A DNA stretch of 64,000 bases, taken from sequence record SRR9188677_103; one strand, 5' to 3'. Under the pieces are notes generated by a model, which was not told where the DNA came from, searched no databases, and saw only the letters and a program-made list of their open reading frames with translations. Positions 10,465 through 64,000 of this stretch are shown one piece after another (the first letter of the stretch is position 1; every line of letters starts with the position of its first letter). Both the position numbers and the translations under genes were made by a program.

Positions 10465-10472
10465 CAAATGTA
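10465..10472 (-). promoter_or_regulatory. -7 promoter element (TACATTTG) 5 nt before the dut ATG
   Basis: Minus strand reads TACATTTG-CAGCC-ATG. Confidence 0.6.
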
Positions 10473-10597
10473 GGAAATGTATGAGAGTTGTTGGCATACC
10501 CGGCAACCGAAATGAGCGCACATGCCTCCACAACAGGCCATTCTTTGTTCGTTTTGATCAAAAATGGATTCATTGCTGTTTAGACAGCCAGATATCC

Positions 10598-10605
10598 TAT
10601 TTTTG
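10598..10605 (+). promoter_or_regulatory. -7 promoter element (TATTTTTG) for the lipoprotein gene
   Basis: TAnnTTTG match 39 nt upstream of ATG 10645, divergent from dut. Confidence 0.45.
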
Positions 10606-10644
10606 AAAGGTATAACAGCCCGGGCAAGAGGTCCGTATTACGAT

Positions 10645-11307: not shown

Positions 11308-11356
11308 ATTTACAACTGAAGATGTTACCTGCATTGATTTAACCTGATTCCTATCC

Positions 11357-45121: not shown

Positions 45122-45982
45122 CTACTTCAGATAATGGGCATATTGTCCGGGTCTTGTATGCATAAAGGCAAACATATCTTTGATCATTTCCTCATAAGAA
45201 GGAATGACATAGTCAAATTCTTTTCGTGTATCTACCAGACTTTTATCAGAAACCACCCCATCTACTGCGATAATTTCAACAGGATGATGGCTGTATTTTT
45301 TAAACAGTTTCAACAACTCATACTTACTGATTGGGGTACCATTGGTAATATGATACAAACCGGTAGTGCCCTGATGGATGGCTCTCTTCACCGCTTTGGC
45401 CAGTTCAAGGGTAGTTACTCCCGACCAGATACTTTTTGTGTATCCATTAATCACACCTGTTCTGCACATAAACCAATGAAACAATTCCTCTCCTCCCGGT
45501 GCCAATTCAGGTCCAACCACAGAAGTACGCAAGGTAAGGTGGGTATCATTGATGACTTCACCCAATGCCTTTGTTCTTGCATAAACACCTGATCCGTCTT
45601 TTTCGTCGTTTTCTCTATAATATCCCTTCTTTCCCGAAAAAACGCAATCTGTTGAGATATGAATCAGTTTTGCATGAATACTGTTTGCCAGTTTTGCCAG
45701 GTGGTTAGGCAGGTAGGCATTCAGGAAAATAGCATTTTCAGGATCTGATGCAGACCCCTCGATAAGTATACCGGCGCAATTGATGATATAATCGGGATGC
45801 AAGCGCTGAACCAGCTGGTCCAGTTCTTTCTCCTTACGCAAATCGAGCAGGATTGAGGAATCTGACACTTTTCTGGTACGGGCAAGATCATGGATCTCGA
45901 ATTCCTGAGAAGCAGCAAGGGTATTGTACACCTGGTGCCCGATTAAGCCGCTTGAACCCAGGAGTAATATCTTTTTCTGCAT
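45122..45982 (-). CDS. RmlD-like SDR, probable UDP-4-keto-6-deoxy-HexNAc 4-reductase (QnlA/WbvR type)
   Basis: LGSSGLIG, INCAG, HISTDCVFSG, YARTKALGE; 286 aa with no C-terminal cupin; downstream of fnlA and a 2-epimerase. Confidence 0.75.
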   Translation of the reverse strand: MQKKILLLGSSGLIGHQVYNTLAASQEFEIHDLARTRKVSDSSILLDLRKEKELDQLVQRLHPDYIINCAGILIEGSASDPENAIFLNAYLPNHLAKLANSIHAKLIHISTDCVFSGKKGYYRENDEKDGSGVYARTKALGEVINDTHLTLRTSVVGPELAPGGEELFHWFMCRTGVINGYTKSIWSGVTTLELAKAVKRAIHQGTTGLYHITNGTPISKYELLKLFKKYSHHPVEIIAVDGVVSDKSLVDTRKEFDYVIPSYEEMIKDMFAFMHTRPGQYAHYLK

Positions 45983-45991
45983 AGATATTTA

Positions 45992-47119
45992 TCAGGGTAT
46001 TTTATGCCAAACCGTACGGTTAATATAATCTGTATAGGAAAGAATGATTCTTAATACTTTTTTAGAAACATTATCAACATCATAATCCTTCACCACTTTC
46101 ATGGCTCTTTTTTCACTGTGCTGTTTGGTAACCACATTGATAGCTTCGATTACCCTGTCTTTTTTCAGGCCAGACATGATAAGTGTGCCCTCATCCATCC
46201 CCTCAGGGCGCTCATGTGCCTGGCGAATGGTAACTGCCGGTAAATTCATGAGCGATCCTTCTTCCGAAATGGTACCACTATCCGATATCACACAAAAAGC
46301 TTTCAATTGAAGATGATTGTATTCGTGAAAACCATAGGGTTTTGAAAACCTGATCAGTTTGTTGGTATGCTGGTAACCGATCTCTTCCAGCTTTTTTCTT
46401 GTTCTTGGATGCGTTGAAATAATAACATGTTTCTTATACACATTGGTAATCTCTTCTATCGTTTCAAGCAGGTCGTCAAAATTTTGTTTTGAATCCACAT
46501 TTTCTTCTCTGTGAATGCTCATCAGGATATACTCGCCTGCCTTCAAATCTTCTTTTACAAGAATATCCGATTGAAGAATCTTTTCCATATTAGCATTTAA
46601 TACTTCCAACATGGGAGAACCTGTTTTGATGATCGTTTCAGGTTTGATGCCTTCGTTAATGAGGTACTGACGTGCATGTTCAGACAAGGGCATATTGATA
46701 TCACTCAGGTGATCAACTATTTTTCTGTTCACCTCTTCTGGTACACGTTGATCAAAACAACGGTTTCCGGCTTCCATGTGAAAAATGGGTACTTTTCTCT
46801 TTTTGGCAGGAATGACTGATAGACAACTGTTGGTATCGCCATACACCAGAATGGCATCGGGATTAATCTTTGTGATAATAGCATCTGCTTTGGCAATGAT
46901 ATCACCTATGGTTTCAGAAACAGTGCCTTTTACTGCCTCCAGAAAATAATCGGGTTTGCGGATAGCCAGTTGTTCAAAAAAAAGTTCATTCAGTTCATAA
47001 TCATAATTCTGTCCTGTATGAACCAACACATGCTCAGTATTTCTATCCAGTTCTTTGATCACTTCACTTAATTTGATGATCTCGGGCCTGGTTCCCACTA
47101 TGGTCATTACTTTAATCAT
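45992..47119 (-). CDS. UDP-6-deoxy-HexNAc 2-epimerase (FnlC/WbjD/QnlB family)
   Basis: VGTRPEIIKL, HTGQNYDYEL, GDTNS, HMEAGNRCFD..VPEE.NR, SDSGT, ERPEG. Confidence 0.9.
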   Translation of the reverse strand: MIKVMTIVGTRPEIIKLSEVIKELDRNTEHVLVHTGQNYDYELNELFFEQLAIRKPDYFLEAVKGTVSETIGDIIAKADAIITKINPDAILVYGDTNSCLSVIPAKKRKVPIFHMEAGNRCFDQRVPEEVNRKIVDHLSDINMPLSEHARQYLINEGIKPETIIKTGSPMLEVLNANMEKILQSDILVKEDLKAGEYILMSIHREENVDSKQNFDDLLETIEEITNVYKKHVIISTHPRTRKKLEEIGYQHTNKLIRFSKPYGFHEYNHLQLKAFCVISDSGTISEEGSLMNLPAVTIRQAHERPEGMDEGTLIMSGLKKDRVIEAINVVTKQHSEKRAMKVVKDYDVDNVSKKVLRIILSYTDYINRTVWHKIP

Positions 47120-47122
47120 AAC

Positions 47123-48142
47123 TTATTTTTTAAGCTCGTTTTGAATGAACTCCAGCTTTAACAGGAGGGCTTCCATTTGCGCTACTGTTAACCGCTCTGT
47201 ATTTTCTGATGTATAATCATCTATTTTGGAAAGGTTCTGTTCTCCTTCTTCAAAATATTTTGCATAGTTGAGATCGCGTGTATCTGCTTTGATGCGGTAG
47301 TAATCGCCCATATCTTCCGATTGGAGGAACTCTTCTTTACTCAGGAGTGCTTCATGCATTTTTTCGCCATGTCTTGTACCGATAACCCGAACTTCATTAT
47401 TTGAATTAAATATTTTCTGCAAAGCTTCTACCAGCGTAAGAATAGTGGCACCGGGTGCTTTCTGCACAAAAGTATCGCCCTGGTTGCCATTATTGAAAGC
47501 AAACTGCACCAATTCAACAGCATCAGGAAGCGACATCATAAACCTTGTCATTTCAGGGTCTGTGATCGTAATCGGCAATCCTTTTTTAATTAATTCTGTG
47601 AATAGCGGAATTACAGAACCCCTTGATGCCATTACATTTCCATAACGGGTAGCAGATAATACCGTTTTATCTGCGGGAAGGTTTCTCGATTTGGCTACCA
47701 TCACTTTTTCCATCATGGCTTTCGACATCCCCATCGCGTTAATTGGGTATACCGCTTTATCGGTACTTAACACAATAACCCTCTCTACACCGTTACTGAT
47801 AGCAGCATCGATGGTATTGGCAGTACCATATACGTTTGTCTTAACAGCTTCCAACGGATAAAACTCGCAGGAGGGCACCTGTTTTAATGCAGCAGCTGAA
47901 AAAACATAATCCACACCACGCATCGCAGATTGAAGGGAATCAATATCCCGTACATCTCCTATATAGAATTTGATCTTATCATTTCTATACTGGTGCCGCA
48001 TATCATCCTGTTTTTTTTCATCGCGGCTGAATATCCTGATCTCACTGATATCCGTATCCAGAAACTTATCCAGCACAGCATTACCAAAAGAACCTGTGCC
48101 GCCTGTAATCAACAGGGTTTTATTTTTAAAAGAATAGCTCAT
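47123..48142 (-). CDS. fnlA: UDP-GlcNAc 4,6-dehydratase/5-epimerase (FnlA/WbjB/CapE)
   Basis: ITGGTGSFG, FSRDEKKQDDMR, AALKQVPSCEF, STDKAVYPINAMGMSKA, RYGNVMASRGSV. Confidence 0.92.
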   Translation of the reverse strand: MSYSFKNKTLLITGGTGSFGNAVLDKFLDTDISEIRIFSRDEKKQDDMRHQYRNDKIKFYIGDVRDIDSLQSAMRGVDYVFSAAALKQVPSCEFYPLEAVKTNVYGTANTIDAAISNGVERVIVLSTDKAVYPINAMGMSKAMMEKVMVAKSRNLPADKTVLSATRYGNVMASRGSVIPLFTELIKKGLPITITDPEMTRFMMSLPDAVELVQFAFNNGNQGDTFVQKAPGATILTLVEALQKIFNSNNEVRVIGTRHGEKMHEALLSKEEFLQSEDMGDYYRIKADTRDLNYAKYFEEGEQNLSKIDDYTSENTERLTVAQMEALLLKLEFIQNELKK

Positions 48143-51341: not shown

Positions 51342-52850
51342 TTATGTTTTTGAGATCTTCGCAATGAGTGAGGTGTAGCTGACAGGTGCAAAAAAGTTGT
51401 TTACATACAAACGGATGCGTTCCAATTGCTTAAGCTTGGTTTCAGAAATATCACGTTCATTTACAATCCGGGAAAAATCATCAACTGTACTTATTGAAAA
51501 TATTTTGTCATTTACTTCGTACAAAGGGTCAATGACCATTTCATTTGTATAAAGATATAAGGGTATCAGCCCTGCATTAACAGATTGAATAATGGCTGTT
51601 GAACCTCGGTATAATGCCCATACAGAACAATTAATATCTTCTTCCAGTAATGACGTGGATAACCTGATATTAGAAGGAAGATTCTTTTTCGGCCCTACAT
51701 GATGTAATATTTCTTCAAAAGATATTACCGGGTGTACCCGCCAGATAAAATAGATATCCGGAAACTGTTTGGCGCAGGCAATTGAAAAATTGAATAACAG
51801 TAAACATTCAGAAAGTAACCCTTCCGGAATAACCAGACAGGCAGGTTGTTTACGTAATCCGGAAGATGAAACCAAATGGTTTTGTACAGAAGCCCTGTCG
51901 GAACCCAGTACATCCAGACTGATACCACCTAAACGGGATGATTTCCCCAATTGTTGCAGCCCTACTTTTCCGGCTGTAAATATGTGGTCTGGGTTATACT
52001 GTTCAGACAGGTTCCGGCGAATGGCATGTTGTAAACGGAAGATGGCAGCATGCTGGTATCCAAAACAACGAATATCCGGGTTACCCTTTCTTGCGGAAGC
52101 AAATACCACACGCTCCCATGCGTGCCCTTCGTAAGTAGTTATCACAAATTTAGGGCGCAGGTTCTTTACGAGTCTTTGCACCTGCCTTCCGATCCTCAGA
52201 TTATGAATGGCCTTTCCCGAACTGGCTTCATGTGCCGCTTTAAAGGCAACTTTTTTCAGCAGCCCATCCCCCGTTCTTTTACCATATGATGAAAGATGCA
52301 GAGATTCTCTAAGACAGTTAAGGTACAATCCCAATTCGCTAAAAAAACCCAAAACATCTGCCAATATAAAGCGTGGCACATTTGCTCTTTTCCATGTAGC
52401 AGACAATACTCTGCCTGGCTGCCTTGTATGATTAATTAAAACAAAAGCACTCTGTATCCCCTGTTCATATAATTTGTCTGCAAGGATGCCAAAATAAAAA
52501 TCAGCATCCTTACCGGCCTGTGTTACATTCAATAAATGAGAAACAAAGATAACCTCTGTTCTTTCTGTTTGTTTATGAGAACTGCTCCACCAACGGCTTT
52601 TGGCCAGTATCAGTTTTGACAGGTGTGCGAGTTGTTTTACCAGCAATCTGAACAGGTAGGACATTCCCCCTGTGCGGGTTAACTGATCCTTTTCTTCCCG
52701 GAAGAGGCTTGCATATGTTTCGAGGAAAACCGGGTGTTCCCGTATTACATGTAACCAGGGTAAGGCCACACGTTCTATACTGCTTCCTGGCTCCATCAAC
52801 AGTTGGTCGCAGGCATCACAAAGCGAATGATATTGCTGTTCAGAGATCAA
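51342..52850 (-). CDS. Hypothetical surface-carbohydrate biosynthesis protein, possible ulosonate transferase (GT-B-like)
   Basis: TTYEGHAWER, GYQHA, WRVHP, GSTA motifs; directly downstream of the CMP-transferase. Confidence 0.5.
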   Translation of the reverse strand: MISEQQYHSLCDACDQLLMEPGSSIERVALPWLHVIREHPVFLETYASLFREEKDQLTRTGGMSYLFRLLVKQLAHLSKLILAKSRWWSSSHKQTERTEVIFVSHLLNVTQAGKDADFYFGILADKLYEQGIQSAFVLINHTRQPGRVLSATWKRANVPRFILADVLGFFSELGLYLNCLRESLHLSSYGKRTGDGLLKKVAFKAAHEASSGKAIHNLRIGRQVQRLVKNLRPKFVITTYEGHAWERVVFASARKGNPDIRCFGYQHAAIFRLQHAIRRNLSEQYNPDHIFTAGKVGLQQLGKSSRLGGISLDVLGSDRASVQNHLVSSSGLRKQPACLVIPEGLLSECLLLFNFSIACAKQFPDIYFIWRVHPVISFEEILHHVGPKKNLPSNIRLSTSLLEEDINCSVWALYRGSTAIIQSVNAGLIPLYLYTNEMVIDPLYEVNDKIFSISTVDDFSRIVNERDISETKLKQLERIRLYVNNFFAPVSYTSLIAKISKT

Positions 52851-52865
52851 ATAAAGAAATTTGTT

Positions 52866-53645
52866 TTATTGAACAGGTGATTGCTTCAGGATGGTTTTCA
52901 GCAGTTCGGCCTGCTCCGCATTGTTTTCGATATAATCGAGTACGATGTGCGCTTCTGCCGGTTCGTTAACCGATGGCAAACTTGGATTAACCGGAACAGA
53001 GTGCAAGGCAAATCCATTTTCAATGATCCGCATCTGTTCAATGAATTCAACGGTTTCTATCGGTGCTGCGGGCATCTCGGTAAGTGCCATAAGGAACTCT
53101 TTCCGGTAGGCGATCAATCCCAATATTTTTCTCGTGAATGCCTGTTGTTTGGCCAGTTCACTATAAAAAGGGGATCGCCTGAAACAGAACATAACCCGGT
53201 CTTTGCGATCAACTGCGCATTTAACAAATGAATGGCGGTCCAGTTCCTCCGCTTGCTCAATAGGACCGGTGGCATTCCAGGCATCGCCTGATGGATTGGC
53301 TTCCATGGCTTTTGCCAGTGTTTGCAGGTGCCTGGGGAGCAAAAGAGGCTCATCACCCTGGAGTAAGATAACATGGGTGCAATCAATATTCTTTACCGCT
53401 TCGGCGATCCGGCTGGTTCCATTTGTATGTGTATTGGCTGTCATGATCACTTTTCCGCCAAAACCAGTGATCGCAGCTGCAATTTCTTCATCACAGGTAG
53501 CCACATATACATCAGCTACCGCACCCGATAACAAGGCCCTTCTGCGCACATGTTCGATCATGGGCAATCCATGAAACTGGAAAAGTATTTTCCGCGGAAA
53601 GCGCACCGAAGCCAGGTGCGCCGGGATTACAGCAACTATTTTCAT
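52866..53645 (-). CDS. KdsB-family CMP-ulosonate cytidylyltransferase (divergent)
   Basis: VIPAHLASVRFPRKIL, PMIEHV, VAT, GTSRIAEA, QGDEP, EQMR; ATG 53645. Confidence 0.85.
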   Translation of the reverse strand: MKIVAVIPAHLASVRFPRKILFQFHGLPMIEHVRRRALLSGAVADVYVATCDEEIAAAITGFGGKVIMTANTHTNGTSRIAEAVKNIDCTHVILLQGDEPLLLPRHLQTLAKAMEANPSGDAWNATGPIEQAEELDRHSFVKCAVDRKDRVMFCFRRSPFYSELAKQQAFTRKILGLIAYRKEFLMALTEMPAAPIETVEFIEQMRIIENGFALHSVPVNPSLPSVNEPAEAHIVLDYIENNAEQAELLKTILKQSPVQ

Positions 53646-53659
53646 AAACAGGTTTTCTA

Positions 53660-54412
53660 TTATTGAGGAAATACCCCACAGTCTACGTTGATACACTGCC
53701 CAGTGATAGCAGATGATGCCGGCGAAGCCAGAAATACGCACATGGCTCCTACTTCGGCTCCGGTGGGTAACCGTTTCAACGCAGCATTCTCTGCGGCAAA
53801 TTTTGAAATGAACGCGTACGGATCAGTGTTTGCTGCAGGTGCAAAAGGTTCTTTCAATGCTTCAATGAGGCCATCAGTAGTAATCAGTACCGGACAGAGC
53901 GCGTTCACGCGGATGCCTCTCGGACCTATCTCTTTGGCCAACGATTGGGTTAATCCGTTCATGCCGAACTTTGACGCACAATACATCGTATTATTTGCAC
54001 TGCCTCTTTTACCGGCGATACTGGAAATATTGATGATAACAGCTCCATCCTGCATAACCGCTGAGGCCGCTTTACAGCCCCAGAAAGCCCCTTTCAGGTT
54101 GGTACCGATCAGTTCATCAAAAAAGGATTCGTCAATATTGGCAATGGGACGCCATTCTGAAAAGCCGGCGTTATTGATAAAACAATCAAGCCGGCCTGTT
54201 TTTTCCATCGCTATTTGTACCAGTTTTACATGGTCGGATTCTTTCCTGACATCGATTTGCAGGAAGGTGATTTTATCGCCAAAACGTTCTTTGAGTCCCA
54301 TTTCCTTACGGGCGCCTACGATTACATGATACCCTGCATTTACAAAGGCTTCGGTTATGCTCAGTCCGATACCCCGGTTACCACCTGTAACCACTACCGT
54401 TTTTTGTTCCAT
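53660..54412 (-). CDS. SDR family oxidoreductase
   Basis: TGGNRGIG, NNAG, NISS, YCASKFG, ITGQCINVDCG. Confidence 0.92.
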   Translation of the reverse strand: MEQKTVVVTGGNRGIGLSITEAFVNAGYHVIVGARKEMGLKERFGDKITFLQIDVRKESDHVKLVQIAMEKTGRLDCFINNAGFSEWRPIANIDESFFDELIGTNLKGAFWGCKAASAVMQDGAVIINISSIAGKRGSANNTMYCASKFGMNGLTQSLAKEIGPRGIRVNALCPVLITTDGLIEALKEPFAPAANTDPYAFISKFAAENAALKRLPTGAEVGAMCVFLASPASSAITGQCINVDCGVFPQ

Positions 54413-54450
54413 AATTTTTTTATTTATTGGGGCCCTGATCCCACTTTACC

Positions 54451-55233
54451 TTAAATGGTCATACAGGAATATCCGCCATCCACTTCGATTTCTGCGCCGG
54501 TTACAAAACTGGCCGCATCAGAAGCCAGCCATAACATGGCACCCACCAGTTCTACCGGTTCACCAAATCTGGCCATGGGCGTATGGCCCAGGATAGCGGC
54601 TTCGCGTTCGGGCGTGATAAAATTCTTTCTGTTCCATTCTGTAGGGAGAAATCCCGGACGGATCGCATTTACCCGAACCCCCTTGGTTCCCCATTCCCTT
54701 CCCAGGTTCTGGGTCAGGTTTTTAATACCAGCCTTTGCTACTGAGTACGTAAATGCTTTTGACAATGGGGGACCTGCCGAAGCAGATGAGATATTGATGA
54801 TAGATCCGCTTCCTCTCTTTACCATATACTCTCCAAATACCTGACAACCGAGGAAGGTACCTGTAATCTGTGAGTCAATGATAGCATACCATTCTTTCAG
54901 ATCAATATCAAAGAAAGGAGTAGACCCGTTGATACCTGCGCCATTTACCAATATGTCTATTTTTCCGAACGCAGCCAGTACATCGTTCAATGCTTTCACG
55001 TGATCTTCTTTTTTAGCAACATCGATCGCCAATGAGATCACTTTATCGTTTCCGGCTGCACGTATTTCTGCTTCCACTGCCTGCGCTTTTTCGAGACGCA
55101 GATCAAGCACAGCAACAGCACAACCGGCACGGGCATACCCTCTTGCCATTTCGCCACATAAATGTCCGCCTGCACCGGTAACCACGGCCACTTTACCTTC
55201 CAGGTTAAATAGTTGATTGAGGTAAGTATTCAT
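54451..55233 (-). CDS. SDR family oxidoreductase (gluconate 5-dehydrogenase/mannonate oxidoreductase-like)
   Basis: LFNLEGKVAVVTGAGG, NISS, YSVAKAG, VNAIRPGF, HTPMARFGEP.ELVG. Confidence 0.88.
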   Translation of the reverse strand: MNTYLNQLFNLEGKVAVVTGAGGHLCGEMARGYARAGCAVAVLDLRLEKAQAVEAEIRAAGNDKVISLAIDVAKKEDHVKALNDVLAAFGKIDILVNGAGINGSTPFFDIDLKEWYAIIDSQITGTFLGCQVFGEYMVKRGSGSIINISSASAGPPLSKAFTYSVAKAGIKNLTQNLGREWGTKGVRVNAIRPGFLPTEWNRKNFITPEREAAILGHTPMARFGEPVELVGAMLWLASDAASFVTGAEIEVDGGYSCMTI

Positions 55234-55247
55234 ACTATAGGTTTATA

Positions 55248-56036
55248 TTATTTACGCATGTTATTGATCAGGCCCTGCATTTTTTCCGCCCATTTCCACA
55301 ACACAAAAAGATCTGATCCGAGAATGGCATAAGTGTGACCCAGATCAAAGAGCGCTTGTACACTTTCGGGAGTAGAGTCAGCTACCTGTGTGCCACAGCT
55401 TTTACCGTATTTTTCACAGGCTGCAATCACTTTACGGGAAGCTTCCAGTACCAACGGGTGAGTAGTTTGTCCGGGAACACCCAGCGAACCTGAAATGTCC
55501 AATGGACCAATCATCACGGCATCCACTTCATCAAAAGCGAGTAATTGCTCTATATTTTCTACTGCCTGTATGGTTTCTACCTGGATCATGAATATGGACT
55601 CTTTGTTCCAGTTATTGATATAGGTATCAAAGTCGAACCCGTATGCCTGGGCCCGATTCACACCATAACTTCTTTTACCAACCGGCGGGTATTTGATATC
55701 ATTGATCAATGCACGTACCTGTTCGGGCGTATTCACCATCTGTATCAGCATACCATCGGCACCAGACTCAATCAAGGGTTTGATCCAGTCGTTGGAGTGA
55801 GATACCGGGCGTGGCAGACAGGGAACGCCTTCACTCTGGCTGGCTGCGATAATGCGTTGTGCTTCTGCAAGTGAGATAGTGGAATGTTCCATATCAATGG
55901 CCATGAAATCGAAACCGGCCCTTGCAAAGGTTTCTGTGATGGACGGGTGTGCATAAGAAACCCAACCGGCAAACATTCTTTCTCTGTTACGGAGTTTTTG
56001 TTTGAGCGCGGCTCTTTTTTCAGCTATCGTATTCAT
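55248..56036 (-). CDS. HpcH/HpaI class II pyruvate aldolase
   Basis: GW, GFDF..IDMEHS, PRP, YPP.GKR, IQVET, IGPLDIS.SLG. Confidence 0.9.
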   Translation of the reverse strand: MNTIAEKRAALKQKLRNRERMFAGWVSYAHPSITETFARAGFDFMAIDMEHSTISLAEAQRIIAASQSEGVPCLPRPVSHSNDWIKPLIESGADGMLIQMVNTPEQVRALINDIKYPPVGKRSYGVNRAQAYGFDFDTYINNWNKESIFMIQVETIQAVENIEQLLAFDEVDAVMIGPLDISGSLGVPGQTTHPLVLEASRKVIAACEKYGKSCGTQVADSTPESVQALFDLGHTYAILGSDLFVLWKWAEKMQGLINNMRK

Positions 56037-56054
56037 TTGGTATTATTTTATTGA

Positions 56055-57014
56055 TCAATGATCAAGCATGCTTCTCAACTGGTGGCGTATCGGTCCGTCG
56101 TATGGCCTGTAAAAAGGAGGATTCAAGAGGTAGTATTGCTGGTGCCATGGACACAGTTCATTAACCAGCACCTTATCGTTGGGTTCCCATGGGTAGTCTG
56201 CGATCCGGGTGATGGTGCCGTCGGGTAAGGATTTCTCTTCCCTGTTGCAGCAATAAAAATGAACCGGCCTTTTAGTGGCGGCCGAATGTATGTTGGCAAA
56301 GTAGCCTGCAATAACCGGAGGATCCATTTCCTGCATGGATACGATATTGATTACAATATCCGCCGGTAGTTCATTCAACAGGTCATGATCAGTCGCCTGG
56401 ATCGCTATTATGCGAATCCCCGGTTTATCCACTGAAATATCTTCCGATATGGCACGTGCCTCTTCGATTCCGGTAATCAGTTCTACGGAATGATCAAATA
56501 CTTCCTCTCCCAGCCATTGTTTCAGGTACCAAAGATCTACCAGTAAGGTTTTGGTAAGGTTTACCAGTACAATGGTACGCACCGATTGGCTGGCATGCAG
56601 CAAACAGGTCATTGATGCAAAGCCATCCCCAATTACCCATGCGATGCCATTTCCCGCAACCTTTACAGGGATATGTTGTTTGAGGAAAGCTAGTGTCAGT
56701 GTTTGCCTGAGAACATCCAACGAATACGCTTTTTTCTGTTTACGTGCGATATGGGCATTCAATGCATCCAACTTCGCAAAGCTGGGGTAAGCTGCACCCA
56801 TTTTTCTGAACCGGGCCTGCAGTATCCTGTGGCCGATCCAGTTAAACCCTCTGTAAGGTTTTTCCAGGCTGCCGAATCCCTGTAGTCCGTTGAAATCATC
56901 TCCGGTGAAATGAAACCCGGTATGGTATTTTTTCCAGTGAGAACTGGCAGCAGTATCTTCCTTGCGTACCTCGCCCGCCAGAAAAGCAATGGCTGATTGG
57001 CCTTTATAACCCAT
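56055..57014 (-). CDS. Putative sugar O-methyltransferase
   Basis: SSHW near N-terminus, VIGDGFA SAM-like loop, NIVSMQEM..I..YF, FYCCNREEK. Confidence 0.6.
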   Translation of the reverse strand: MGYKGQSAIAFLAGEVRKEDTAASSHWKKYHTGFHFTGDDFNGLQGFGSLEKPYRGFNWIGHRILQARFRKMGAAYPSFAKLDALNAHIARKQKKAYSLDVLRQTLTLAFLKQHIPVKVAGNGIAWVIGDGFASMTCLLHASQSVRTIVLVNLTKTLLVDLWYLKQWLGEEVFDHSVELITGIEEARAISEDISVDKPGIRIIAIQATDHDLLNELPADIVINIVSMQEMDPPVIAGYFANIHSAATKRPVHFYCCNREEKSLPDGTITRIADYPWEPNDKVLVNELCPWHQQYYLLNPPFYRPYDGPIRHQLRSMLDH

Positions 57015-57412
57015 TATTTATTTTTTAATAGTGCATCCACCACCGGATGCAAATGCAATAAACCAACCAGGATACCCTTATCATCCACCACTGGCAGATC
57101 CCAGATCTTTTTAGATTCCATCACCTCGATCACATGGGTAAGGGTATCTTTCGGATCAGTAGTTACGGGAGAAACAATGGCATGATCCAGTGCATCATCC
57201 ACAAAGAATGCGGAAAGAGGTTTTTGTACTTTCAATAATTTCCTGCGGATATCCCCATCAGTAAGGATCCCCAATAATTTATGGTTACTATCTACGATAC
57301 AGGCAATTCCAAGGCGAAGACGGTTCATTTCCTCCAGTGCTTCTTTCATGATAACCGTTTCTGCAATTACCGGGAACTTTATCAGCGGCAACATAACCTC
57401 ATTAACAAGCAT
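57014..57412 (-). CDS. Stand-alone CBS-pair protein (resembles the KdsD/KpsF C-terminal domain)
   Basis: V.EVM, LGILTDGDIRR, KKIWDLPVVD..G.LVGLLHLH; no SIS domain. Confidence 0.85.
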   Translation of the reverse strand: MLVNEVMLPLIKFPVIAETVIMKEALEEMNRLRLGIACIVDSNHKLLGILTDGDIRRKLLKVQKPLSAFFVDDALDHAIVSPVTTDPKDTLTHVIEVMESKKIWDLPVVDDKGILVGLLHLHPVVDALLKNK

Positions 57413-57416
57413 ACTA

Positions 57417-58298
57417 TTATTTTTTGGGGTGAATATTATCTGGACCATATTTTGCCAGTAATTCAAGACGGGTTTCGTGCATCACTTTTGCCTGGATAAG
57501 GATATTTTCCAGGTATTTGATATCCAGTACAGTATTGGCATCAGACAATGCATTATCCGGATCATCATGCACTTCCATGAACAGGAGGTTGATCCCGTTT
57601 GCAACAGCAGCCCTTACCAGATGTGGTATAAATTCGCGCTGTCCGCCGGATATATTACCCATCGAAGTTGGTAACTGAATGGAGTGGGTAGCATCAAAAC
57701 AAACCGGATAACCGGTTGAAGCCATGATGGGGAAACAGGTCATATCGTTTACCAGCATGTTATATCCGAAAAAAGTACCACGGTCTGCCAGGATAATCTG
57801 GCTGTTACCATTGGCTTCCAGTTTCCGGCAGGAGTTCTTCATGTTCCACGGACTCATGAACTGTCCTTTTTTCAGGAGTACGGGGCGGTTGGTCTTGGCG
57901 GCAGCTCTTAAGATAGAAGTCTGGCGGCATAAATAAGCCGGCACCTGTACCATATCGCAAACCTCACCGGTGGCGGCACCCCAGGCTGGATCTGAAAAAT
58001 CAGACACAACCGGTACACCAAACTCTTTCCGGATATCAGACAGTATCTGTAAACCTTCGTGGATCCCCATACCATGAAAGCTGGTAGGAGAAGAGCGACA
58101 ATCCTTGTCATAACAGGATTTGTAGATCCATTCGATACCTACCCTGCGGCAGATATCACCGGTAAGTTCAGCCATTCTGAAGGCATGATCACGGTTCTCT
58201 ATGGCGCAAGGTCCACCAACAAATACCAATGGAAGGTCTGCACCGATCTGTACAGGCTTCACATCACCATACCCAACTGAGATTATTTTATTTTTCAT
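57417..58298 (-). CDS. KdsA-family (KDO8P-synthase-like) PEP-dependent synthase, divergent
   Basis: GGPCAIE, QVPAYLCRQT, KKGQF, RGTFFGY, FDATHS, FMEVH..P..ALSD; KANRS replaced by KDCRS. Confidence 0.9.
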   Translation of the reverse strand: MKNKIISVGYGDVKPVQIGADLPLVFVGGPCAIENRDHAFRMAELTGDICRRVGIEWIYKSCYDKDCRSSPTSFHGMGIHEGLQILSDIRKEFGVPVVSDFSDPAWGAATGEVCDMVQVPAYLCRQTSILRAAAKTNRPVLLKKGQFMSPWNMKNSCRKLEANGNSQIILADRGTFFGYNMLVNDMTCFPIMASTGYPVCFDATHSIQLPTSMGNISGGQREFIPHLVRAAVANGINLLFMEVHDDPDNALSDANTVLDIKYLENILIQAKVMHETRLELLAKYGPDNIHPKK

Positions 58299-58339
58299 AT
58301 TTCGTATCTGGTTAAAAAGAATTTTTAAATCCTGCGTAG

Positions 58340-59407
58340 TTAGTAAATTATTTCAAAATAGGAAGAAGAGGTGTTCCGGAAAAAGTTTCGTCCGTATAAT
58401 TCTCTTCTCACGATCTGGTAATGGTTGATGGGGAAAATATCAAAATGACGGGTGGGTTTGCCATGAATCATATAGTCCCGGATAGTGATATCCGTATCAT
58501 AGGTCTTCTCAAAGAAGGGACTGCTCACAAACCGGTTAACCAGGTAAATATGTTTTGAAGTCTGGAAAAGTGGGCTGTCGAAATAATTCGAGAAATGATC
58601 TTTCCGCATTTCACCCAGGCTGAAGAAGTTGGACATAAGCGCTGCCTTATGGCCTGCGATCTTATGGAAATCATTGACTGGCACATACAGGAATGAACCT
58701 TCCGGCATATCTGACAGGTTCTTGAACTGATCAACTTCTGAAGGCAGGTAATGGTTGCTGTTGGGATACTGGGTACTGAGGTACAGATAACTGCGTAACA
58801 GCTGGTGATGAAAGTCTACCAGTACGATCCTTGATGTAGGATAATATTTTTTAACCAACCCCTGCAGGCCACCGTAAAAAGATCCGATATCCACCCATAC
58901 ATCTCCGGGAGCTAGTAATTGCTGGTTCCTGATCTGGGCCAGCAGGTAGATATATCTTAACCAGCGGTGAGACACCGAATAACCATTCACCAAGGGGAAT
59001 TGGGAAGCACCGGGGGTATCAATCTGCGGGTTATCTGTTAAGAGGTCTTTGCCGCCAATTGATTCAACGATGCTGATATCATCGAGCATCATGGAATGAC
59101 TGAACAGTCCCTGGATCCTGAAGTTGATCCTGTTGGCAATGTTTCCCAGGATCCTTGCAAGAAAGGAAGAATTATCACGAACCCCGATGGCAGCTTTTGA
59201 AAAAATATTCAGGCCATGGTTCACTCCCATATCCGACTGGCCGGCCCAATTACGAAGGCTATCAATGGTAAAACCCGAATGCAGCAGTTCATACGCACTA
59301 CTGATAATCTTCTGGTGTTTTGTATCTATCTCTGAGATGGATCCATCCTTAAAAAAATCCGGTGACTTTGAAATGAAATATTCTAACTGAGACTGAAACT
59401 TATCCAT
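58340..59407 (-). CDS. Putative sugar O-methyltransferase
   Basis: LRYIY, VDIGSFYGG, LVDF, NFFSLGEM...YF, VNR. Confidence 0.7.
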   Translation of the reverse strand: MDKFQSQLEYFISKSPDFFKDGSISEIDTKHQKIISSAYELLHSGFTIDSLRNWAGQSDMGVNHGLNIFSKAAIGVRDNSSFLARILGNIANRINFRIQGLFSHSMMLDDISIVESIGGKDLLTDNPQIDTPGASQFPLVNGYSVSHRWLRYIYLLAQIRNQQLLAPGDVWVDIGSFYGGLQGLVKKYYPTSRIVLVDFHHQLLRSYLYLSTQYPNSNHYLPSEVDQFKNLSDMPEGSFLYVPVNDFHKIAGHKAALMSNFFSLGEMRKDHFSNYFDSPLFQTSKHIYLVNRFVSSPFFEKTYDTDITIRDYMIHGKPTRHFDIFPINHYQIVRRELYGRNFFRNTSSSYFEIIY

Positions 59408-59416
59408 ACTGAGAAA

Positions 59417-60142
59417 TTATTTTATCGCCAGGAACCCTTCAAATGCCAGGTATTTCTGAACGGTGCAAATATCAAGAAATCCTGCCCTTTTCAACATATC
59501 AACGTTGCCATTGGTAGAAAATGGTTCCAATATCCCTTTCAGGCTTCTTGTTTTTCCAATGATCTCTTCACAGGAATACCCCTGGGAAAGTTTGTAATCA
59601 TTATATAAGGTAGTGATGATATCCTGGAAACGGGCATCCGGGTAACGCACTTTCTCAAAGAGTATGAATGCACCTCCCCAGTTGAGTGATTCATAGATAC
59701 GGTTGATCAGGTTCTGTCTTTCTTTCGGATGAACAAACTGGATCGTATAATAACAAACCACCAGATCACAGGGTTCGAATTCGATACGGGTGATATCGGA
59801 GTCAAAGAACTGGATCTTTCCCGGCAGGGCGTTGAATTTACCCAGTTTCTCATTGGCTTTACCGATCATATCTGATTCGATATCGTATCCATAGAACTGT
59901 GCACCTTCCTTATTCCTGTTATGATTGTACAAATTGAACGTAAGTGTTCCGGTTGAACAACCCAGCTCATATACCACGGAATCCTTCTTCACAAAATAAT
60001 CGCTGAGCTGACAGATCAGGTTATGCCCTTCTTTGTAGAAAGGAACCGATTTGGACACATGATCATCAAAGCTGTCTACCATCTCACCTGAAAATTTCCA
60101 ATCGGCATTGCTGGCACTGATGTTATCACCAACTGTTTTCAT
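59417..60142 (-). CDS. CmoA (carboxy-SAM synthase)-family protein
   Basis: WKF...FDDHVSKSVPFY, VYELGCSTG, YTIQF, GGAFILFEK, DYK..QGYS..EI..K..SL, L..AGF match the CmoA layout. Confidence 0.8.
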   Translation of the reverse strand: MKTVGDNISASNADWKFSGEMVDSFDDHVSKSVPFYKEGHNLICQLSDYFVKKDSVVYELGCSTGTLTFNLYNHNRNKEGAQFYGYDIESDMIGKANEKLGKFNALPGKIQFFDSDITRIEFEPCDLVVCYYTIQFVHPKERQNLINRIYESLNWGGAFILFEKVRYPDARFQDIITTLYNDYKLSQGYSCEEIIGKTRSLKGILEPFSTNGNVDMLKRAGFLDICTVQKYLAFEGFLAIK

Positions 60143-60164
60143 AAATTACTATTTAGAGTGTAGG

Positions 60165-61835
60165 TTAAAGATCTTTGAAAATATCCTCGAGTGCATCCCT
60201 TCCTAAGATCAGTTTGCCCTCCAGATCTTTCCCGAATTCAGCCCCGTAGGTATCCGGAACAAAAAACACCGATTTTTTGCAAATATCGGCCATAGAATAA
60301 TAGGTTGAAGTATAAGGGAAATTAATCACTAGATCGACCGGATTGCCTGCGATGCGGATATTACTATAGGGGTTAATCAACGAAAATAACGGACCCAATT
60401 CCTTTTGTATGGAGCCAATCATCGATTTGTAATCTTCTGGCAGTTCCGGCGAGGAAAGTGAGTACTTGGGTTTCAAAAAAATCTTACAGTTATATTTCCG
60501 CGAAAGATACACTATATCAGTAAAAAATGACCCCAAAAAATCCGGTTTGGCCGTTTTGTCGCCAATTATACTCCTGCCAAGGTCCTTATTGTCACTTTCG
60601 GTAGGTACATCAAAAACAAGGATCGCTTTCTCCTGATCGGTGAGGGTAAGTGTACAGTAAGTTTCGTACCCAAGGTTTACCGGTATGGCTTCGCTGATAT
60701 CGTAGCTGGCCAGTGGCAATCTTAATCCAAATCTCCCGTTTACATATTCCTTACAGCAATTGATCAATACAGAATGAAATGCGAACCCGATGGGATTACG
60801 CGCATAAAAGGAAAACACCGGCAGATCACATTCTTCCAGTAAGGCATCTCCTTCGAAAACCGTTTGCTGGTTCAGCATATTCCTGGAAACCTCTTTTGAC
60901 GGAGGTACAAAAAAATTCTGGCTATAAGAATATACTTCTATCAGTTTATCATATGCCGAACCGTATTTCAGTAAACCCAGTTCATGAAAAGCCAGTATAT
61001 AGATACGGGAGATACTGACATTTTTTGAGGTAAGTGCCTCCAGCATGGAAAGATAGCGGCGGGCAGTAAGCGACTGCCGAATATAGGCTACCAGTAAAAA
61101 AAGACCAGGTTTTTTGGTTCTCTGCCAATAGTTGCTGCACTCCCTGAAAAAAAGCCGGATAGCAGTGCCCCAACCCATTATTTCCGTAACAGCTGCCAGT
61201 TTTGTATGTGCGAACTCCATGGGCAGAAAAGCCTCTGCCTCCGTGTTGCCGGCTGTTTCGTGTTTCTTACTTGGCCGCTGGTATTCATCAATGGTCAGAA
61301 ATTGCTCCCCGCTGCCGGCCAGGTTTTTTTTTGAGATCAGGTATTCAACAAATGATTTCGGATATTTCATTTCATGCGGGTCATAGGAAAACGCATGTTC
61401 CGGGAACCCGATACAAACCGCGACCTTCCCCGATACCCCTGTATAGTCAATACCAAAACGGCACCTGAAACCCCGCAGTGAAACAAACAGGTCTTTCAAT
61501 ACATCTGTACCTGCATGCCACAAACTAAGCCACATAAAAAGCTCTTTCTTCAGGAAGGGCATTTTATGGCAGGTCTGGTAGGTAGCATACCGATGCCGGA
61601 AATGTTTTTTCAGCTGTCCACTGAACACATCCAGACAAAACTGCTGGGAGAACGCAGCTGTTGAAGCAGTGCCGGTAGCAAACGCCTTTCCGATATAGGT
61701 AAAAACCTCGGTATTGATCCCCAGGTTGATTCGCTTTCTTTCAGATACCCACTCTCCAAAACCCAGGTCTTTCCGCCCATAAATACACATGGCTTCATAC
61801 GAGTATCCATATATCTTTAATAAGGGTCTAACCAT
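60165..61835 (-). CDS. Hypothetical polysaccharide biosynthesis protein with C-terminal P(F/Y)TS motif
   Basis: 556 aa; VFDV, LKPKY and INFPYTST in the C-terminal region recall the PFTS-motif polysaccharide proteins. Confidence 0.5.
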   Translation of the reverse strand: MVRPLLKIYGYSYEAMCIYGRKDLGFGEWVSERKRINLGINTEVFTYIGKAFATGTASTAAFSQQFCLDVFSGQLKKHFRHRYATYQTCHKMPFLKKELFMWLSLWHAGTDVLKDLFVSLRGFRCRFGIDYTGVSGKVAVCIGFPEHAFSYDPHEMKYPKSFVEYLISKKNLAGSGEQFLTIDEYQRPSKKHETAGNTEAEAFLPMEFAHTKLAAVTEIMGWGTAIRLFFRECSNYWQRTKKPGLFLLVAYIRQSLTARRYLSMLEALTSKNVSISRIYILAFHELGLLKYGSAYDKLIEVYSYSQNFFVPPSKEVSRNMLNQQTVFEGDALLEECDLPVFSFYARNPIGFAFHSVLINCCKEYVNGRFGLRLPLASYDISEAIPVNLGYETYCTLTLTDQEKAILVFDVPTESDNKDLGRSIIGDKTAKPDFLGSFFTDIVYLSRKYNCKIFLKPKYSLSSPELPEDYKSMIGSIQKELGPLFSLINPYSNIRIAGNPVDLVINFPYTSTYYSMADICKKSVFFVPDTYGAEFGKDLEGKLILGRDALEDIFKDL

Positions 61836-61880: not shown

Positions 61881-62924
61881 TCAATTAATCAGGTCCCATT
61901 GTAAAGGGGTTCCCTTGGCAATATCCTGCCTTACCGTTTTACCCAATACCTGTTCAAAATATTTGGGTGCCAGTCCCTGGCCCGGTCTTACACAACGCAG
62001 ATTATCCCGAGTAAGTGTTTCGCCCGCTTTGATGTTCTCGGATATATAGAGGGACCTGCGGAACTGCAGGGATTTTTTTTCAGCTTCTGTTGGGCCATAG
62101 GTAATTTTACCCAGCGCCTGCCAGGCCCTTTCTGTTTCCGTTACCAGGCTTGCAAACTCTTCGGGTTCCAGTGAAAATGCGCTGTCCACTCCCCCATCCG
62201 CTCTTCGCAGTGTAAAATGTTTTTCAATCACACAAACGCCCAATGCTACTGCAGCAACTGCCACACCGATACCCATGGTATGATCCGATAATCCGATCTC
62301 GCAATTGAAGAGCTGACGCATATGCGGTATGGTTTGCAGGTTGCTGTTTGCAGGGATCGCGGGATAGGTGCTGGTACATTTTAACAGGATGAGGTCCCGG
62401 CAACCAGCCTCCCTTGCCGCTGTAACCGCATCTGTCAGTTCAGCAAGAGAAGCCATGCCTGTAGAAATGATCATGGGTTTGCCGGTTGCTGCTACCTTCC
62501 GGATCAATGGCAGGTGATTATTTTCAAAAGAAGCAATCTTATATGCGGGAACGTTGAGTGTTTCCAGAAAATCAACTGCAGTCTCATCAAAGGGACTGCT
62601 GAAACAAACCATACCCAGTTCATTGGCCCTTTTCATAATAGGTTCGTGCCATTCCCATGGTGTATAGGCTTCCTTGTACAGCTTATGCAGGGTTTTACCG
62701 TTCCATAAACTATTGTTATCCTCAATCTGGAAATCTTTGGTAGACACATCAAGTGTAATCGTATCAGCCGTATAGGTCTGTAATTTCAAGGCATGAGCAC
62801 CTGCTTTGGCAGCCGCTTCCACAATTTCCATTGCCCTGTCGAGTGAGTTATTATGATTCCCCGACATTTCCGCAATCAGAAATGGTTTGTAGCTGGCTCC
62901 TATATCAATATTACTTATTCGCAT
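61881..62924 (-). CDS. pseI: Pseudaminic acid synthase
   Basis: IAEMSGNHN, KLQTYTADT, YTPWEWH, KIASFE, LKCTSTYP, GLSDHT, IEKHFTL..GGVDSAFSLEP, C-terminal SAF domain; ATG 62924. Confidence 0.9.
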   Translation of the reverse strand: MRISNIDIGASYKPFLIAEMSGNHNNSLDRAMEIVEAAAKAGAHALKLQTYTADTITLDVSTKDFQIEDNNSLWNGKTLHKLYKEAYTPWEWHEPIMKRANELGMVCFSSPFDETAVDFLETLNVPAYKIASFENNHLPLIRKVAATGKPMIISTGMASLAELTDAVTAAREAGCRDLILLKCTSTYPAIPANSNLQTIPHMRQLFNCEIGLSDHTMGIGVAVAAVALGVCVIEKHFTLRRADGGVDSAFSLEPEEFASLVTETERAWQALGKITYGPTEAEKKSLQFRRSLYISENIKAGETLTRDNLRCVRPGQGLAPKYFEQVLGKTVRQDIAKGTPLQWDLIN

Positions 62925-62931
62925 GCTGCTT

Positions 62932-63381
62932 TTATTTATTATCCAGTGTAAACTTAATGAGTTGAATCCCGTTTTCCTCTGTGATGCCAGTGTTGATAAA
63001 TCCGACCCGTTCAAAAATTTTCACGGAAGCCAGATTGGCCGGTTTCACATAGGCAGCTATCTTTGCCTGGCCGATGGCCGCTAATCCAAGCCGGATTATT
63101 TTCTCGCCATATCCTTTTCCCCTTTGTGCAGCTGAAACAGAGTAACCGATCACCCATTCATCCGCTGCCTGCTCAAAACGGATCAATCCGATATTTTCCG
63201 AATCATCCACCAATATATACATCCGGGTATGGTCACTTTTCAGTTTTCTTTCAAACCATTTTATATGATCTTCCTGTGAGATGGCTGCACTGTTCACAGA
63301 CATTTCCCTCACAGCCGGATCATTTGCCCACCGGAACAGGAGTTCACTGTCGTTCATATCTACTGTTCTAAGTCTGATCAT
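62932..63381 (-). CDS. GNAT N-acetyltransferase (PseH-like)
   Basis: WAND..VR..S, EDHIKWF, IGLIRF, RGKGYG, N.AS..IF..GF; lies between pseG and pseI. Confidence 0.8.
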   Translation of the reverse strand: MIRLRTVDMNDSELLFRWANDPAVREMSVNSAAISQEDHIKWFERKLKSDHTRMYILVDDSENIGLIRFEQAADEWVIGYSVSAAQRGKGYGEKIIRLGLAAIGQAKIAAYVKPANLASVKIFERVGFINTGITEENGIQLIKFTLDNK

Positions 63382-64000
63382 CTGACAAGTTCCCTGAATA
63401 GCTGCCTGAAATGACTTTCAGACGCCAATGGATTTTCGAGTATACTGACCGGGTTTTCTACACGTGCAACCGTATCCGTCACTGTTTGCGCCGTTAGTTC
63501 TTCATGATTTCCTAGACCTACAGCTAAGTTATTATCCACGAAACCATCATATAAGCGTTGCTGGTTTTGTGCGGTAAGTACAGTAAAGCAATACAAACCG
63601 CGTGCGTAAGCTTCTATCAAAACTGTACTCGCAGAAACAAAAGCAAAACGGCACCGGTCCATGACAGCTACAATTGAGTCAGCCGAAAGATTCTGGTAAA
63701 GCGTGGTGCCACCTTCTTCTTCCATGCTCCGAAGTTCACTAAGAAGTTCATTGCTGAAATGGCTGGTACCTAAAACGTGTATATGGCTGAACCTTTTTGA
63801 GGCTTTCAGCCAACGACATACGGAGCGTGTGATGCCGTTTGTATCCGAACCACCCATGCTTACATAGATATCTGCACCGCTTTTTTCATCGGGGAACACC
63901 CTGAAGAAGGCTCTCCGCAAAATAGCATAGTCAAGCCCAATACAAAGCCTTGCCCTTGTAGGCTGATAGCAGGCGGGTGAAAGTCCAGGTGCATGGTTGA
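63378..64000 (-). CDS. pseG: PseG-family UDP-sugar hydrolase (5' end beyond window)
   Basis: Frame is open to the window edge: NHAPG...IGLDYAILRRAF...SMGGSD...SASTV.IEA...AQNQ. Confidence 0.8.
   Translation of the reverse strand, partial: NHAPGLSPACYQPTRARLCIGLDYAILRRAFFRVFPDEKSGADIYVSMGGSDTNGITRSVCRWLKASKRFSHIHVLGTSHFSNELLSELRSMEEEGGTTLYQNLSADSIVAVMDRCRFAFVSASTVLIEAYARGLYCFTVLTAQNQQRLYDGFVDNNLAVGLGNHEELTAQTVTDTVARVENPVSILENPLASESHFRQLFRELVR

Follow-up and report, generated by a model that had tools for sequence, protein, structure and literature searches.

The sequence record SRR9188677_103, a stretch of 64,000 nucleotides (the window), carries between positions 51342 and 61835 eleven genes, g01 to g11 in transcription order (Table 1), that include relatives of KdsA and KdsB, two enzymes of 3-deoxy-D-manno-octulosonic acid (Kdo) synthesis, together with an HpcH-type aldolase and two short-chain dehydrogenases/reductases (SDRs). 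The question raised by this locus is whether the genes supply ordinary Kdo, activated with cytidine monophosphate (CMP), or a different sugar. A prediction made from the sequence alone had read them as an undescribed module for a 2-keto-3-deoxy acid other than Kdo, which would be CMP-activated, O-alkylated and transferred to a surface glycan. The observation behind this prediction was confirmed: eleven co-oriented open reading frames (ORFs) on the minus strand fill the interval with intergenic gaps of -1 to 45 nt, and the assigned domains agree with Pfam and NCBIfam matches. Its interpretation is partly supported. With moderate confidence, we regard g04 to g11 as a self-contained, horizontally mobile cassette for a CMP-activated 3-deoxy-2-ulosonic acid of the Kdo type, destined for a surface polysaccharide and kept apart from housekeeping Kdo synthesis; to judge from the sequences, the sugar is most likely distinct from ordinary Kdo. 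No description of the module was found in the searchable literature; supplementary tables lay outside that scope, and the Leptospira rfb tables may list its genes.

Conservation of the cassette

Loci related to the window were collected from two directions. A scan seeded with the KdsA-like gene g04 against contigs representing one genome per species yielded 234 relatives, of which the best 80 loci, at 71-86% identity, were kept; 54 of these offered at least 7 kb of downstream flank and are referred to as roomy loci. A second scan, seeded with the HpcH aldolase gene g07 against metagenome contigs, yielded 99 relatives, and again the best 80 were kept. For the latter, the KdsA-like gene was scored at an identity of at least 65% in loci with at least 2.6 kb of upstream sequence (n=43), and the SDR genes in loci with at least 2.5 kb downstream (n=44).

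Both scans recover the same conserved core, consisting of the KdsA-like synthase, a CBS pair, the HpcH aldolase, an SDR of the nicotinamide adenine dinucleotide (NAD) type, an SDR of the NAD phosphate (NADP) type, the KdsB-like cytidylyltransferase and a GT-B-fold protein with an HP motif. The CBS gene adjoins the KdsA-like gene in 79 of the 80 loci, the sole miss (L064) stopping at a contig edge. CBS, HpcH, both SDRs and KdsB are all present in 40/54 roomy loci and colinear in 38, and the HpcH-seeded metagenome loci contain the KdsA-like gene in 40/43 and both SDR genes in 43/44 cases. The conserved co-occurrence that the original prediction had named as a check is thereby found, and the gene arrangement is far beyond chance. 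An HpcH search of 301 genomes of the class to which genome G001 belongs found an orthologue only in the seed genome (84% identity), with six others matching at 35-38%, and did not inform on co-occurrence.

Within the core, the aldolase and the two SDRs form an optional insert. Their presence as additions to a Kdo-type pathway was predicted correctly; the prediction is weakened by 4/54 roomy loci that encode the KdsA-like protein, CBS and KdsB without HpcH or SDRs. A gene of the g06 type lies between CBS and HpcH in 16/54 roomy loci, and a gene of the g11 type follows KdsB in 31/54. Around the core, methyltransferases, acetyltransferases and glycosyltransferases vary freely among loci. Recurrent neighbours include a true PFTS protein (TIGR04417, 373 bits) following NeuB and a GNAT protein, FkbM and other methyltransferases, acetyltransferases and a GT2 glycosyltransferase; the cassette often adjoins PseI, and a KdsC-like HAD phosphatase is encoded in 9 loci.

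Directly upstream of the KdsA-like gene, 17-19 loci, though not the window, carry genes for two conserved proteins of about 265 and 275 aa that have no assigned family. Neither the first (c9) nor the second (c8) has a match in Pfam, NCBIfam or the sequences of the PDB. For c8, a confident all-beta model was obtained (predicted local distance difference test, pLDDT, 89) with invariant His, Asp and Glu residues; it has no meaningful fold match in the PDB (template-modelling score, TM-score, of at most 0.30).

Three further variants were observed among the loci. In L066, L068 and L075, the place of HpcH, the SDRs and KdsB after the CBS gene is taken by genes for a radical-SAM/SPASM protein and for another protein about 500 aa long. 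In Leptospira noguchii serovar Panama (L042:14329-15144), an integrase gene (rve) of the insertion-sequence type lies between the two SDR genes. In Arcticimaribacter (L016; G005:C1:1696795-1697160), the CBS gene has an in-frame TAA and only short ORF fragments follow the KdsA-like gene, so that this copy looks like one in decay.

Synthase, cytidylyltransferase and the housekeeping Kdo pathway

The closest solved structures to g04 are canonical metal-dependent Kdo 8-phosphate (KDO8P) synthases (KDO8PS). By alignment with the Aquifex aeolicus enzyme, Cys31, His205, Glu242 and Asp253 of g04 correspond to Cys11, His185, Glu222 and Asp233, which we take to be the metal ligands of the metal-dependent class, while Cys67 stands for Asn48 and Ser102 for His83. 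The first of these two exchanges falls in the KANRS motif. In mutagenesis work of 2011 in Biochemistry, Allison and colleagues are said to have described this motif as absolutely conserved and as belonging to the site for arabinose 5-phosphate, and a change of its Asn reportedly lowered substrate selectivity.

The original prediction had noted altered motifs in both KdsA and KdsB, and these turn out to be clade-wide, with K-D-C-R-S for KANRS and P-A-H for P-A-R. K-D-C-R-S occurs in 80 of 81 clade sequences (the window and the 80 loci), and none of the 81 retains the Asn of KANRS, which has given way to Cys in 80 and to Gly in L066; canonical KdsA proteins from the same loci or genomes read A-N-R-S/T in 5/5 cases. 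All clade members depart from canonical KdsA at the same five segments, namely K-S-C-Y-D-K-D-C-R-S-S for K-S-S-F-D-K-A-N-R-S/T, S-D-F-S for T-D-I-H, P-A-Y-L-C-R-Q-T for P-A-F-L-C-R-Q-T, P-W-N-M for P-W-D-M, and R-G-T-F-F-G-Y-N for R-G-x-S-F-G-Y. Judged by these segments, the clade synthase has a changed substrate site.

The rarity of the motif was assessed in an exhaustive HMMER search of 1.84 billion representative proteins, for which the best 150 matches were listed. Among these, one full-length clade representative (80% identity, 545 bits) is followed by a next match at 50% identity and 281 bits. In 122 of the 150 the motif was identifiable; it reads A-N-R-T/S in 104 and D-C-R-S in 4, the latter being clade members or fragments. 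A few KDO8PS-like representatives have other forms of the motif, D-W-R-S, D-N-R-S/T and G-N-R-G/T, and these could point to additional variants in specificity. With the window synthase as query, at least 2001 clusters at 90% identity reach E <=1e-100; among the best 120 matches, all source names given read plain KDO 8-P synthase, and the best 120 matches of near length have 289-296 aa with PF00793 alone. A fused KdsA-like form of at least 514 aa was not found, the single match of that length being a 1387-aa eukaryotic protein at 46% identity.

In the tree, the KdsA-like clade is monophyletic (SH-like approximate likelihood-ratio test, SH-aLRT, 100) and lies among metal-type KDO8P synthases. 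Its stem measures 1.14 changes per column, with end branches of 0.10-0.36 and a whole-tree median of 0.97, and identity within the clade is 71-88%. Its members come from Actinomycetota, Cyanobacteriota, Spirochaetota, Bacteroidota and Pseudomonadota, to which the KdsB tree adds Nitrospirota, Thermodesulfobacteriota, Myxococcota, Calditrichota and Balneolota, giving ten phyla. So little divergence between members from different phyla indicates that the clade spread horizontally while under strong constraint.

The cytidylyltransferase-like g10 matches PF02348 (123 bits) and scores above the cut-off of NF003952 (197.3 vs 193 bits) and below those of TIGR00466 (123 vs 155) and NF009905 (209 vs 255); among solved structures it is most similar to E. 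coli KpsU (1GQ9). It reads P-A-H-L-A-S-V-R-F-P-R-K, with His for the Arg of P-A-R, and keeps Q-G-D-E-P. The KdsB proteins of the module fall into a single clade of 55 rows (SH-aLRT 100), apart from five canonical-like KdsB proteins found in some loci, and loci without HpcH and SDRs occupy at least four places in this clade, on long branches.

For the relation to the housekeeping pathway, genomes carrying relatives of the window locus were searched for canonical kdsA (n=10), KdsD (n=15) and WaaA (n=10); no completeness figures are available for them, and G046, G047, G049 and G051 are single-cell or metagenome assemblies. The separate canonical kdsA that the original prediction had asked about is present, as a second and higher-scoring copy (347-409 bits) at another locus, in 7/10 carrier genomes. 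None was found in Devosia G003, Prochlorococcus G046 and Planktophila G047, which hold module-type copies only (324-330 bits). Full-length KdsD was found in 9/15 genomes and in none of G003, G046, G047, G049, G050 and G051; WaaA was found in 6/10 and in none of G003, G046, G047 and G051, the last of which was searched for KdsD and WaaA alone. As three carriers have neither KdsD nor WaaA by these searches, the module does not feed an ordinary lipid A core there. G003 has LpxC, and across its genus a KDO8P synthase was not found in 37 of 41 sampled genomes, the other four giving module-type scores only, which suggests that Devosia makes lipid A without Kdo. In Leptospira noguchii, the sole KdsC match of the genome lies at the end of the module locus L042; an excerpt of PMC9736851 has KdsC following serogroup in this species. 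Synteny, second kdsA copies and carriers without KdsD or WaaA together uphold the claim that the module is separate from the housekeeping route to Kdo. The cassette is thus an accessory trait and occurs also in lineages where no Kdo core pathway or arabinose 5-phosphate source was found.

Proposed route and competing explanations

The remaining genes suggest a route, each step of which we infer from sequence. The K-D-C-R-S synthase would condense phosphoenolpyruvate (PEP) with a phosphorylated aldose that it probably does not handle like arabinose 5-phosphate, so that KdsD would not be required as a source. The stand-alone CBS pair would act as its regulatory partner. Here g05 consists of the CBS pair only (PF00571) and lacks the SIS catalytic domain of KpsF/KdsD, its TIGR00393 match being limited to profile positions 165-268; conserved motifs are present in the CBS alignment of the related loci. 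The predicted complex of KdsA-like protein and CBS pair scored 0.02, which gives no verdict, and no fused KdsA-like/CBS polypeptide occurs among the proteins listed. If the cassette makes a novel sugar, the CBS protein would be the first dedicated regulatory subunit of an enzyme of the KDO8PS type.

A phosphatase of the KdsC type would then strip the phosphate; some loci encode one, and for the window it would have to come from elsewhere. The NAD-type SDR, HpcH aldolase and NADP-type SDR would rebuild the free acid. The aldolase g07 (PF03328, 102 bits) aligns its segments D-M-E-H, R-P, Q-V-E and G-P-L-D with the same segments of 7V8T and 3QZ6, and these presumably contribute the catalytic His and Arg and the metal-binding Glu and Asp; its nearest solved relatives are HpaI, YfaU and GarL. 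The SDR g08 scores 255.6 bits against NF006132, under the cut-off of 281, and is closest to gluconate 5-dehydrogenase (best solved match 1VL8), mannonate oxidoreductase and KduD. An Asp after strand beta-2 marks NAD-preferring classical SDRs and an Arg-rich signature marks NADP-preferring ones; g08 has this Asp (V-L-D-L-R) and g09 reads T-G-G-N-R-G-I-G and G-A-R-K, so that the two carry opposite cofactor signatures. Given these and the kept catalytic segments of g07, the simplest reading has the free 2-keto-3-deoxy acid oxidised, passed through an aldolase-type step and reduced. HpcH and SDRs appear to act before CMP activation, a reading favoured by the opposite cofactor signatures of the SDRs, by the long KdsB branches of loci without them and by the count of KdsB residues given below; the outcome may be an epimer, a changed carbon chain or a branch, among which the sequence gives no choice.

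The acid would be O-methylated by the NanM-like methyltransferases g03 and g06, which score 115.7 and 48.8 bits against TIGR04371 (cut-off 44). The original prediction had proposed O-alkylation; methylation is the likelier form. Carboxymethylation via the CmoA-like g02 was set aside as less likely. This protein falls short of TIGR00740 (162 vs 193 bits), the solved structure closest to it is E. coli CmoA (4GEK), and it reads Y-K-L-S-Q-G-Y-S where the E. coli and Haemophilus influenzae CmoA proteins read F-K-R-A-N-G-Y-S. It thus has Leu in place of an Arg that reportedly (Kim et al. 2013) holds the carboxylate of carboxy-S-adenosylmethionine (carboxy-SAM). On this ground g02 is probably not a carboxy-SAM synthase, and plain methylation is likelier. 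The pair g02 and g03 recurs in L052, L096, L146 and L156.

After conversion to the CMP-sugar by the P-A-H-type KdsB paralogue, the sugar would be transferred to the glycan by g11, the best candidate for the transferase by its predicted fold. No Pfam or NCBIfam family matches g11. With 27 relatives it shares the invariant residues E241, E246, Y265, H267, R371, H373 and D405, the HP at residue 373 lying in an invariant R-x-H-P. Its AlphaFold model (pLDDT 90.4, predicted TM-score, pTM, 0.91) has two Rossmann-like domains, and the top Foldseek matches are UDP-GlcNAc 2-epimerases, MurG, OtsA and glycogen synthase (E ~1e-9, target-normalised TM-score 0.45-0.60). The named language-model neighbours Glyphos_transf, Capsule_synth and LIC12162 are leads only. 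Elsewhere, proteins of 550-620 aa that are distantly related to g11 occupy the same position and link it to the PFTS family.

Several findings tell against this account of the cassette. In 10/54 roomy loci the KdsA-like and CBS genes are present and module-type KdsB is absent, so that the parts seem able to work in other combinations. Conversely, 3/43 HpcH-seeded loci (L101, L106 and L114) have HpcH, both SDRs, KdsB and the HP protein, yet neither the KdsA-like gene nor CBS lies in the 8 kb upstream of them. The synthase g04 exceeds the cut-off of the NCBIfam KDO8P-synthase model NF003543 (329 vs 242 bits), misses that of TIGR01362 by only about 2 bits (311.8 vs 314), though that of NF009109 by far more (247 vs 457), and has lost none of the four metal ligands, nor the Arg and Ser that bind phosphate, whereby ordinary KDO8P synthesis could still be its reaction. 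The window lacks a KdsC-like HAD phosphatase gene by tblastn over its 64 kb. The KdsD-less carriers are one draft isolate and single-cell or metagenome assemblies, and another route to arabinose 5-phosphate is possible in them. Lastly, action of HpcH and SDRs before CMP activation leans in part on the Arg position of P-A-R in KdsB, which is His in 43/46 loci with HpcH and SDRs and Arg in 13/14 loci without; this is a raw count that comprises one independent pair on supported branches and at most five on any, too few to give the association statistical weight.

A more specific form of the proposal has the synthase use a sugar phosphate other than arabinose 5-phosphate to make a hitherto undescribed 3-deoxy-ulosonic acid, such as a stereoisomer of Kdo derived from ribose 5-phosphate or an acid of another chain length, to which HpcH and the SDRs might add pyruvate-derived carbons or a second carboxylate. 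We advance it tentatively, as a serious possibility rather than the expected outcome.

Of the competing explanations, the one that survives best holds that the genes merely provide extra CMP-Kdo for a capsule or O-antigen, in the manner of KpsF/KpsU, with neutral or regulatory motif changes and with HpcH, SDRs and methyltransferases acting on other sugars. The NF003543 score of g04, the kinship of g10 with the capsule enzyme KpsU, the resemblance of the CBS pair to a remnant of KpsF, the KdsC-like HAD in some loci and the KdsD of 9/15 carrier genomes would all suit it. We nevertheless hold it unlikely, since the Asn of KANRS is near-universal elsewhere (A-N-R-T/S in 104/122) and lost in every module sequence, a second substrate-side segment has changed as well (T-D-I-H to S-D-F-S), the module occurs in genomes where KdsD, WaaA and canonical KdsA were not found, HpcH and the SDRs lie between CBS and KdsB in 38 colinear loci, and their presence tracks the active-site substitution of KdsB in the raw count above.

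Less probable again is the production of two separate compounds, an ulosonic acid by the KdsA-like protein, CBS and KdsB, and a hydroxy acid made from pyruvate and an aldehyde by HpcH and the SDRs, which would decorate the glycan. HpcH enzymes normally join pyruvate to small aldehydes, and such enzymes (HpaI, YfaU, GarL) are the nearest solved relatives of g07; moreover, minimal loci dispense with HpcH and both SDRs, and at L106 and L114 (~6900-12600) these three occur in the absence of KdsA-like and CBS genes. In these two loci, the two conserved genes of no assigned family lead straight into HpcH. However, KdsB and the HP protein still come right after the SDRs there, no coenzyme A ligase, carrier protein or acyltransferase is conserved beside the HpcH and SDR genes, and the His/Arg state of KdsB, which follows their presence, better fits one shared substrate. 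Finally, meaningless adjacency of unrelated genes packed into a glycan island can be dismissed, for although such islands are mosaics whose flanking genes vary freely, the order of the core genes persists through ten phyla and in scans from either seed, and the synteny counts contradict it.

Gene layout and comparison with known systems

Table 1. Genes of the interval in the window, with two example positions of the conserved upstream gene pair in other loci.
Gene	Assignment	Position	Strand	Length and matches
g01	PYTS-motif protein, PFTS/LIC12162-like putative ulosonic/nonulosonic acid transferase	60165..61835	(-)	556 aa; weak TIGR04417
g02	CmoA-fold S-adenosylmethionine-dependent methyltransferase	59417..60142	(-)	241 aa; TIGR00740 below cut-off
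g03	NanM-like putative sugar O-methyltransferase	58340..59407	(-)	355 aa; TIGR04371
g04	KDO8P-synthase paralogue, metal-dependent type	57417..58298	(-)	293 aa; PF00793, NF003543
g05	Stand-alone CBS pair, KpsF C-terminus-like	57014..57412	(-)	132 aa; PF00571
g06	Second, weaker NanM-like O-methyltransferase	56055..57014	(-)	319 aa; TIGR04371
g07	HpcH/HpaI class II pyruvate aldolase	55248..56036	(-)	262 aa; PF03328
g08	Classical SDR, NAD-type	54451..55233	(-)	260 aa; NF006132 below cut-off
g09	Classical SDR, FabG/glucose 1-dehydrogenase-related, NADP-type	53660..54412	(-)	250 aa
g10	CMP-Kdo-synthetase paralogue (KdsB-like)	52866..53645	(-)	259 aa; PF02348
g11	GT-B-fold putative glycosyltransferase, HP protein	51342..52850	(-)	502 aa; model and Foldseek
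	Two upstream unknown genes, example	L005:8426-10008
	Two upstream unknown genes, example	L106:5493-7726

The most likely start of g05 is 57412, 4 nt past the stop of g04, and that of g10 is M33 (53645). The predicted gene set stands, whereas the predicted limits do not: the co-oriented block extends from at least 63998 down to about 34340, a glycan operon of at least 30 kb. No SIS domain is encoded anywhere in the 64-kb window by tblastn, so that the predicted lack of both SIS and KdsC genes is borne out. A promoter and terminator scan found fewer sites than in shuffles and was uninformative.

Directly upstream, at 61881-63998 (minus strand), lie genes for PseI (TIGR03586, 515 bits), a PseH-like GNAT protein and a PseG-like protein of which only the C-terminal part is included; a pseudaminic-acid operon is thus truncated by the edge of the window and continues into the cassette. 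The PYTS-motif protein g01 probably belongs with this operon rather than with the core, as far as its relatives indicate. Its match to TIGR04417 covers only the C-terminal 120 residues at 24.7 bits, below the family cut-off of 100, with the PYTS motif at residue 507, and its nearest Atlas clusters are LIC12162/PFTS (0.93, taken as a lead). An excerpt of PMC6679464 places a LIC12162-family transferase beside sialic-acid genes. Since g01 resembles PFTS/LIC12162 proteins and these follow NeuB and GNAT elsewhere, it probably serves the upstream PseG/H/I genes.

Downstream of the cassette follow genes for a methyltransferase, GT2, GT4, FnlA, WecB, an RmlD-like protein and further glycosyltransferases. 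Among these, the FnlA-like dehydratase, WecB-type 2-epimerase and RmlD-like reductase at 45122-48142 (minus strand), with GT2, GT4 and FkbM methyltransferase genes around them, look like a UDP-L-FucNAc-type set.

If the more specific form of the proposal, with an aldose other than arabinose 5-phosphate, is true, the cassette would represent a new family of surface sugars that gene transfer has carried over at least ten bacterial phyla, including Prochlorococcus, Devosia and Planktophila, for which no Kdo pathway was found. Because module synthases are named plain KDO 8-P synthase, metabolic reconstructions would wrongly credit Kdo to, e.g., Prochlorococcus and Devosia, and miss a separate surface sugar; were the product a new ulosonic acid, a K-D-C-R-S synthase with a CBS neighbour would serve as its marker. 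The clade would further offer a naturally occurring test of how substrates are chosen in the KDO8PS fold, shared with 3-deoxy-D-arabino-heptulosonate 7-phosphate (DAH7P) synthases (DAH7PS), at the KANRS motif, and g11 a candidate for a transferase family that currently has no classification. In abundant aquatic bacteria, variation in surface sugars matters for recognition by phages and grazers.

With the canonical CMP-Kdo pathway, the cassette shares a PEP-condensing synthase of the DAHP_synth_1 fold that carries the four metal ligands, a cytidylyltransferase (CTP_transf_3) and, at some loci, a HAD of the KdsC type; unlike that pathway, it has no SIS isomerase, carries the K-D-C-R-S and P-A-H motifs, and brings in an aldolase, two SDRs and a constant CBS partner. 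The group 2 capsule system of E. coli (KpsF/KpsU, with the transferases KpsC/KpsS) likewise has second Kdo gene copies dedicated to the capsule, KpsU is nearest to g10 among solved structures, the CBS pair resembles the C-terminus of KpsF, and Capsule_synth is a lead for g11. The cassette differs from it in having its own synthase and no SIS half of KpsF, and g11 has no Pfam match to Capsule_synth.

The pathways of pseudaminic, legionaminic and neuraminic acids (Pse/Leg/Neu) resemble the cassette, which often lies beside PseI, in their logic: PEP is condensed, the product is activated with CMP, a dedicated transferase follows, tailoring is heavy and the genes spread horizontally. The cassette synthase, by contrast, belongs to the KdsA/DAH7PS family instead of NeuB and would need a phosphorylated aldose. 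In the non-phosphorylative catabolism of L-rhamnose and L-fucose, a sugar 1-dehydrogenase and a 2-keto-3-deoxy-acid 4-dehydrogenase, both SDRs, work with an HpcH aldolase of the YfaU type. These are the same three enzyme types, and they act on 2-keto-3-deoxy sugar acids; the trio of the cassette, however, is embedded in a biosynthetic glycan operon between synthase and cytidylyltransferase. Some DAH7P synthases carry added regulatory domains (ACT, chorismate mutase), which may offer an analogy for the synthase and its CBS pair, here a separate polypeptide.

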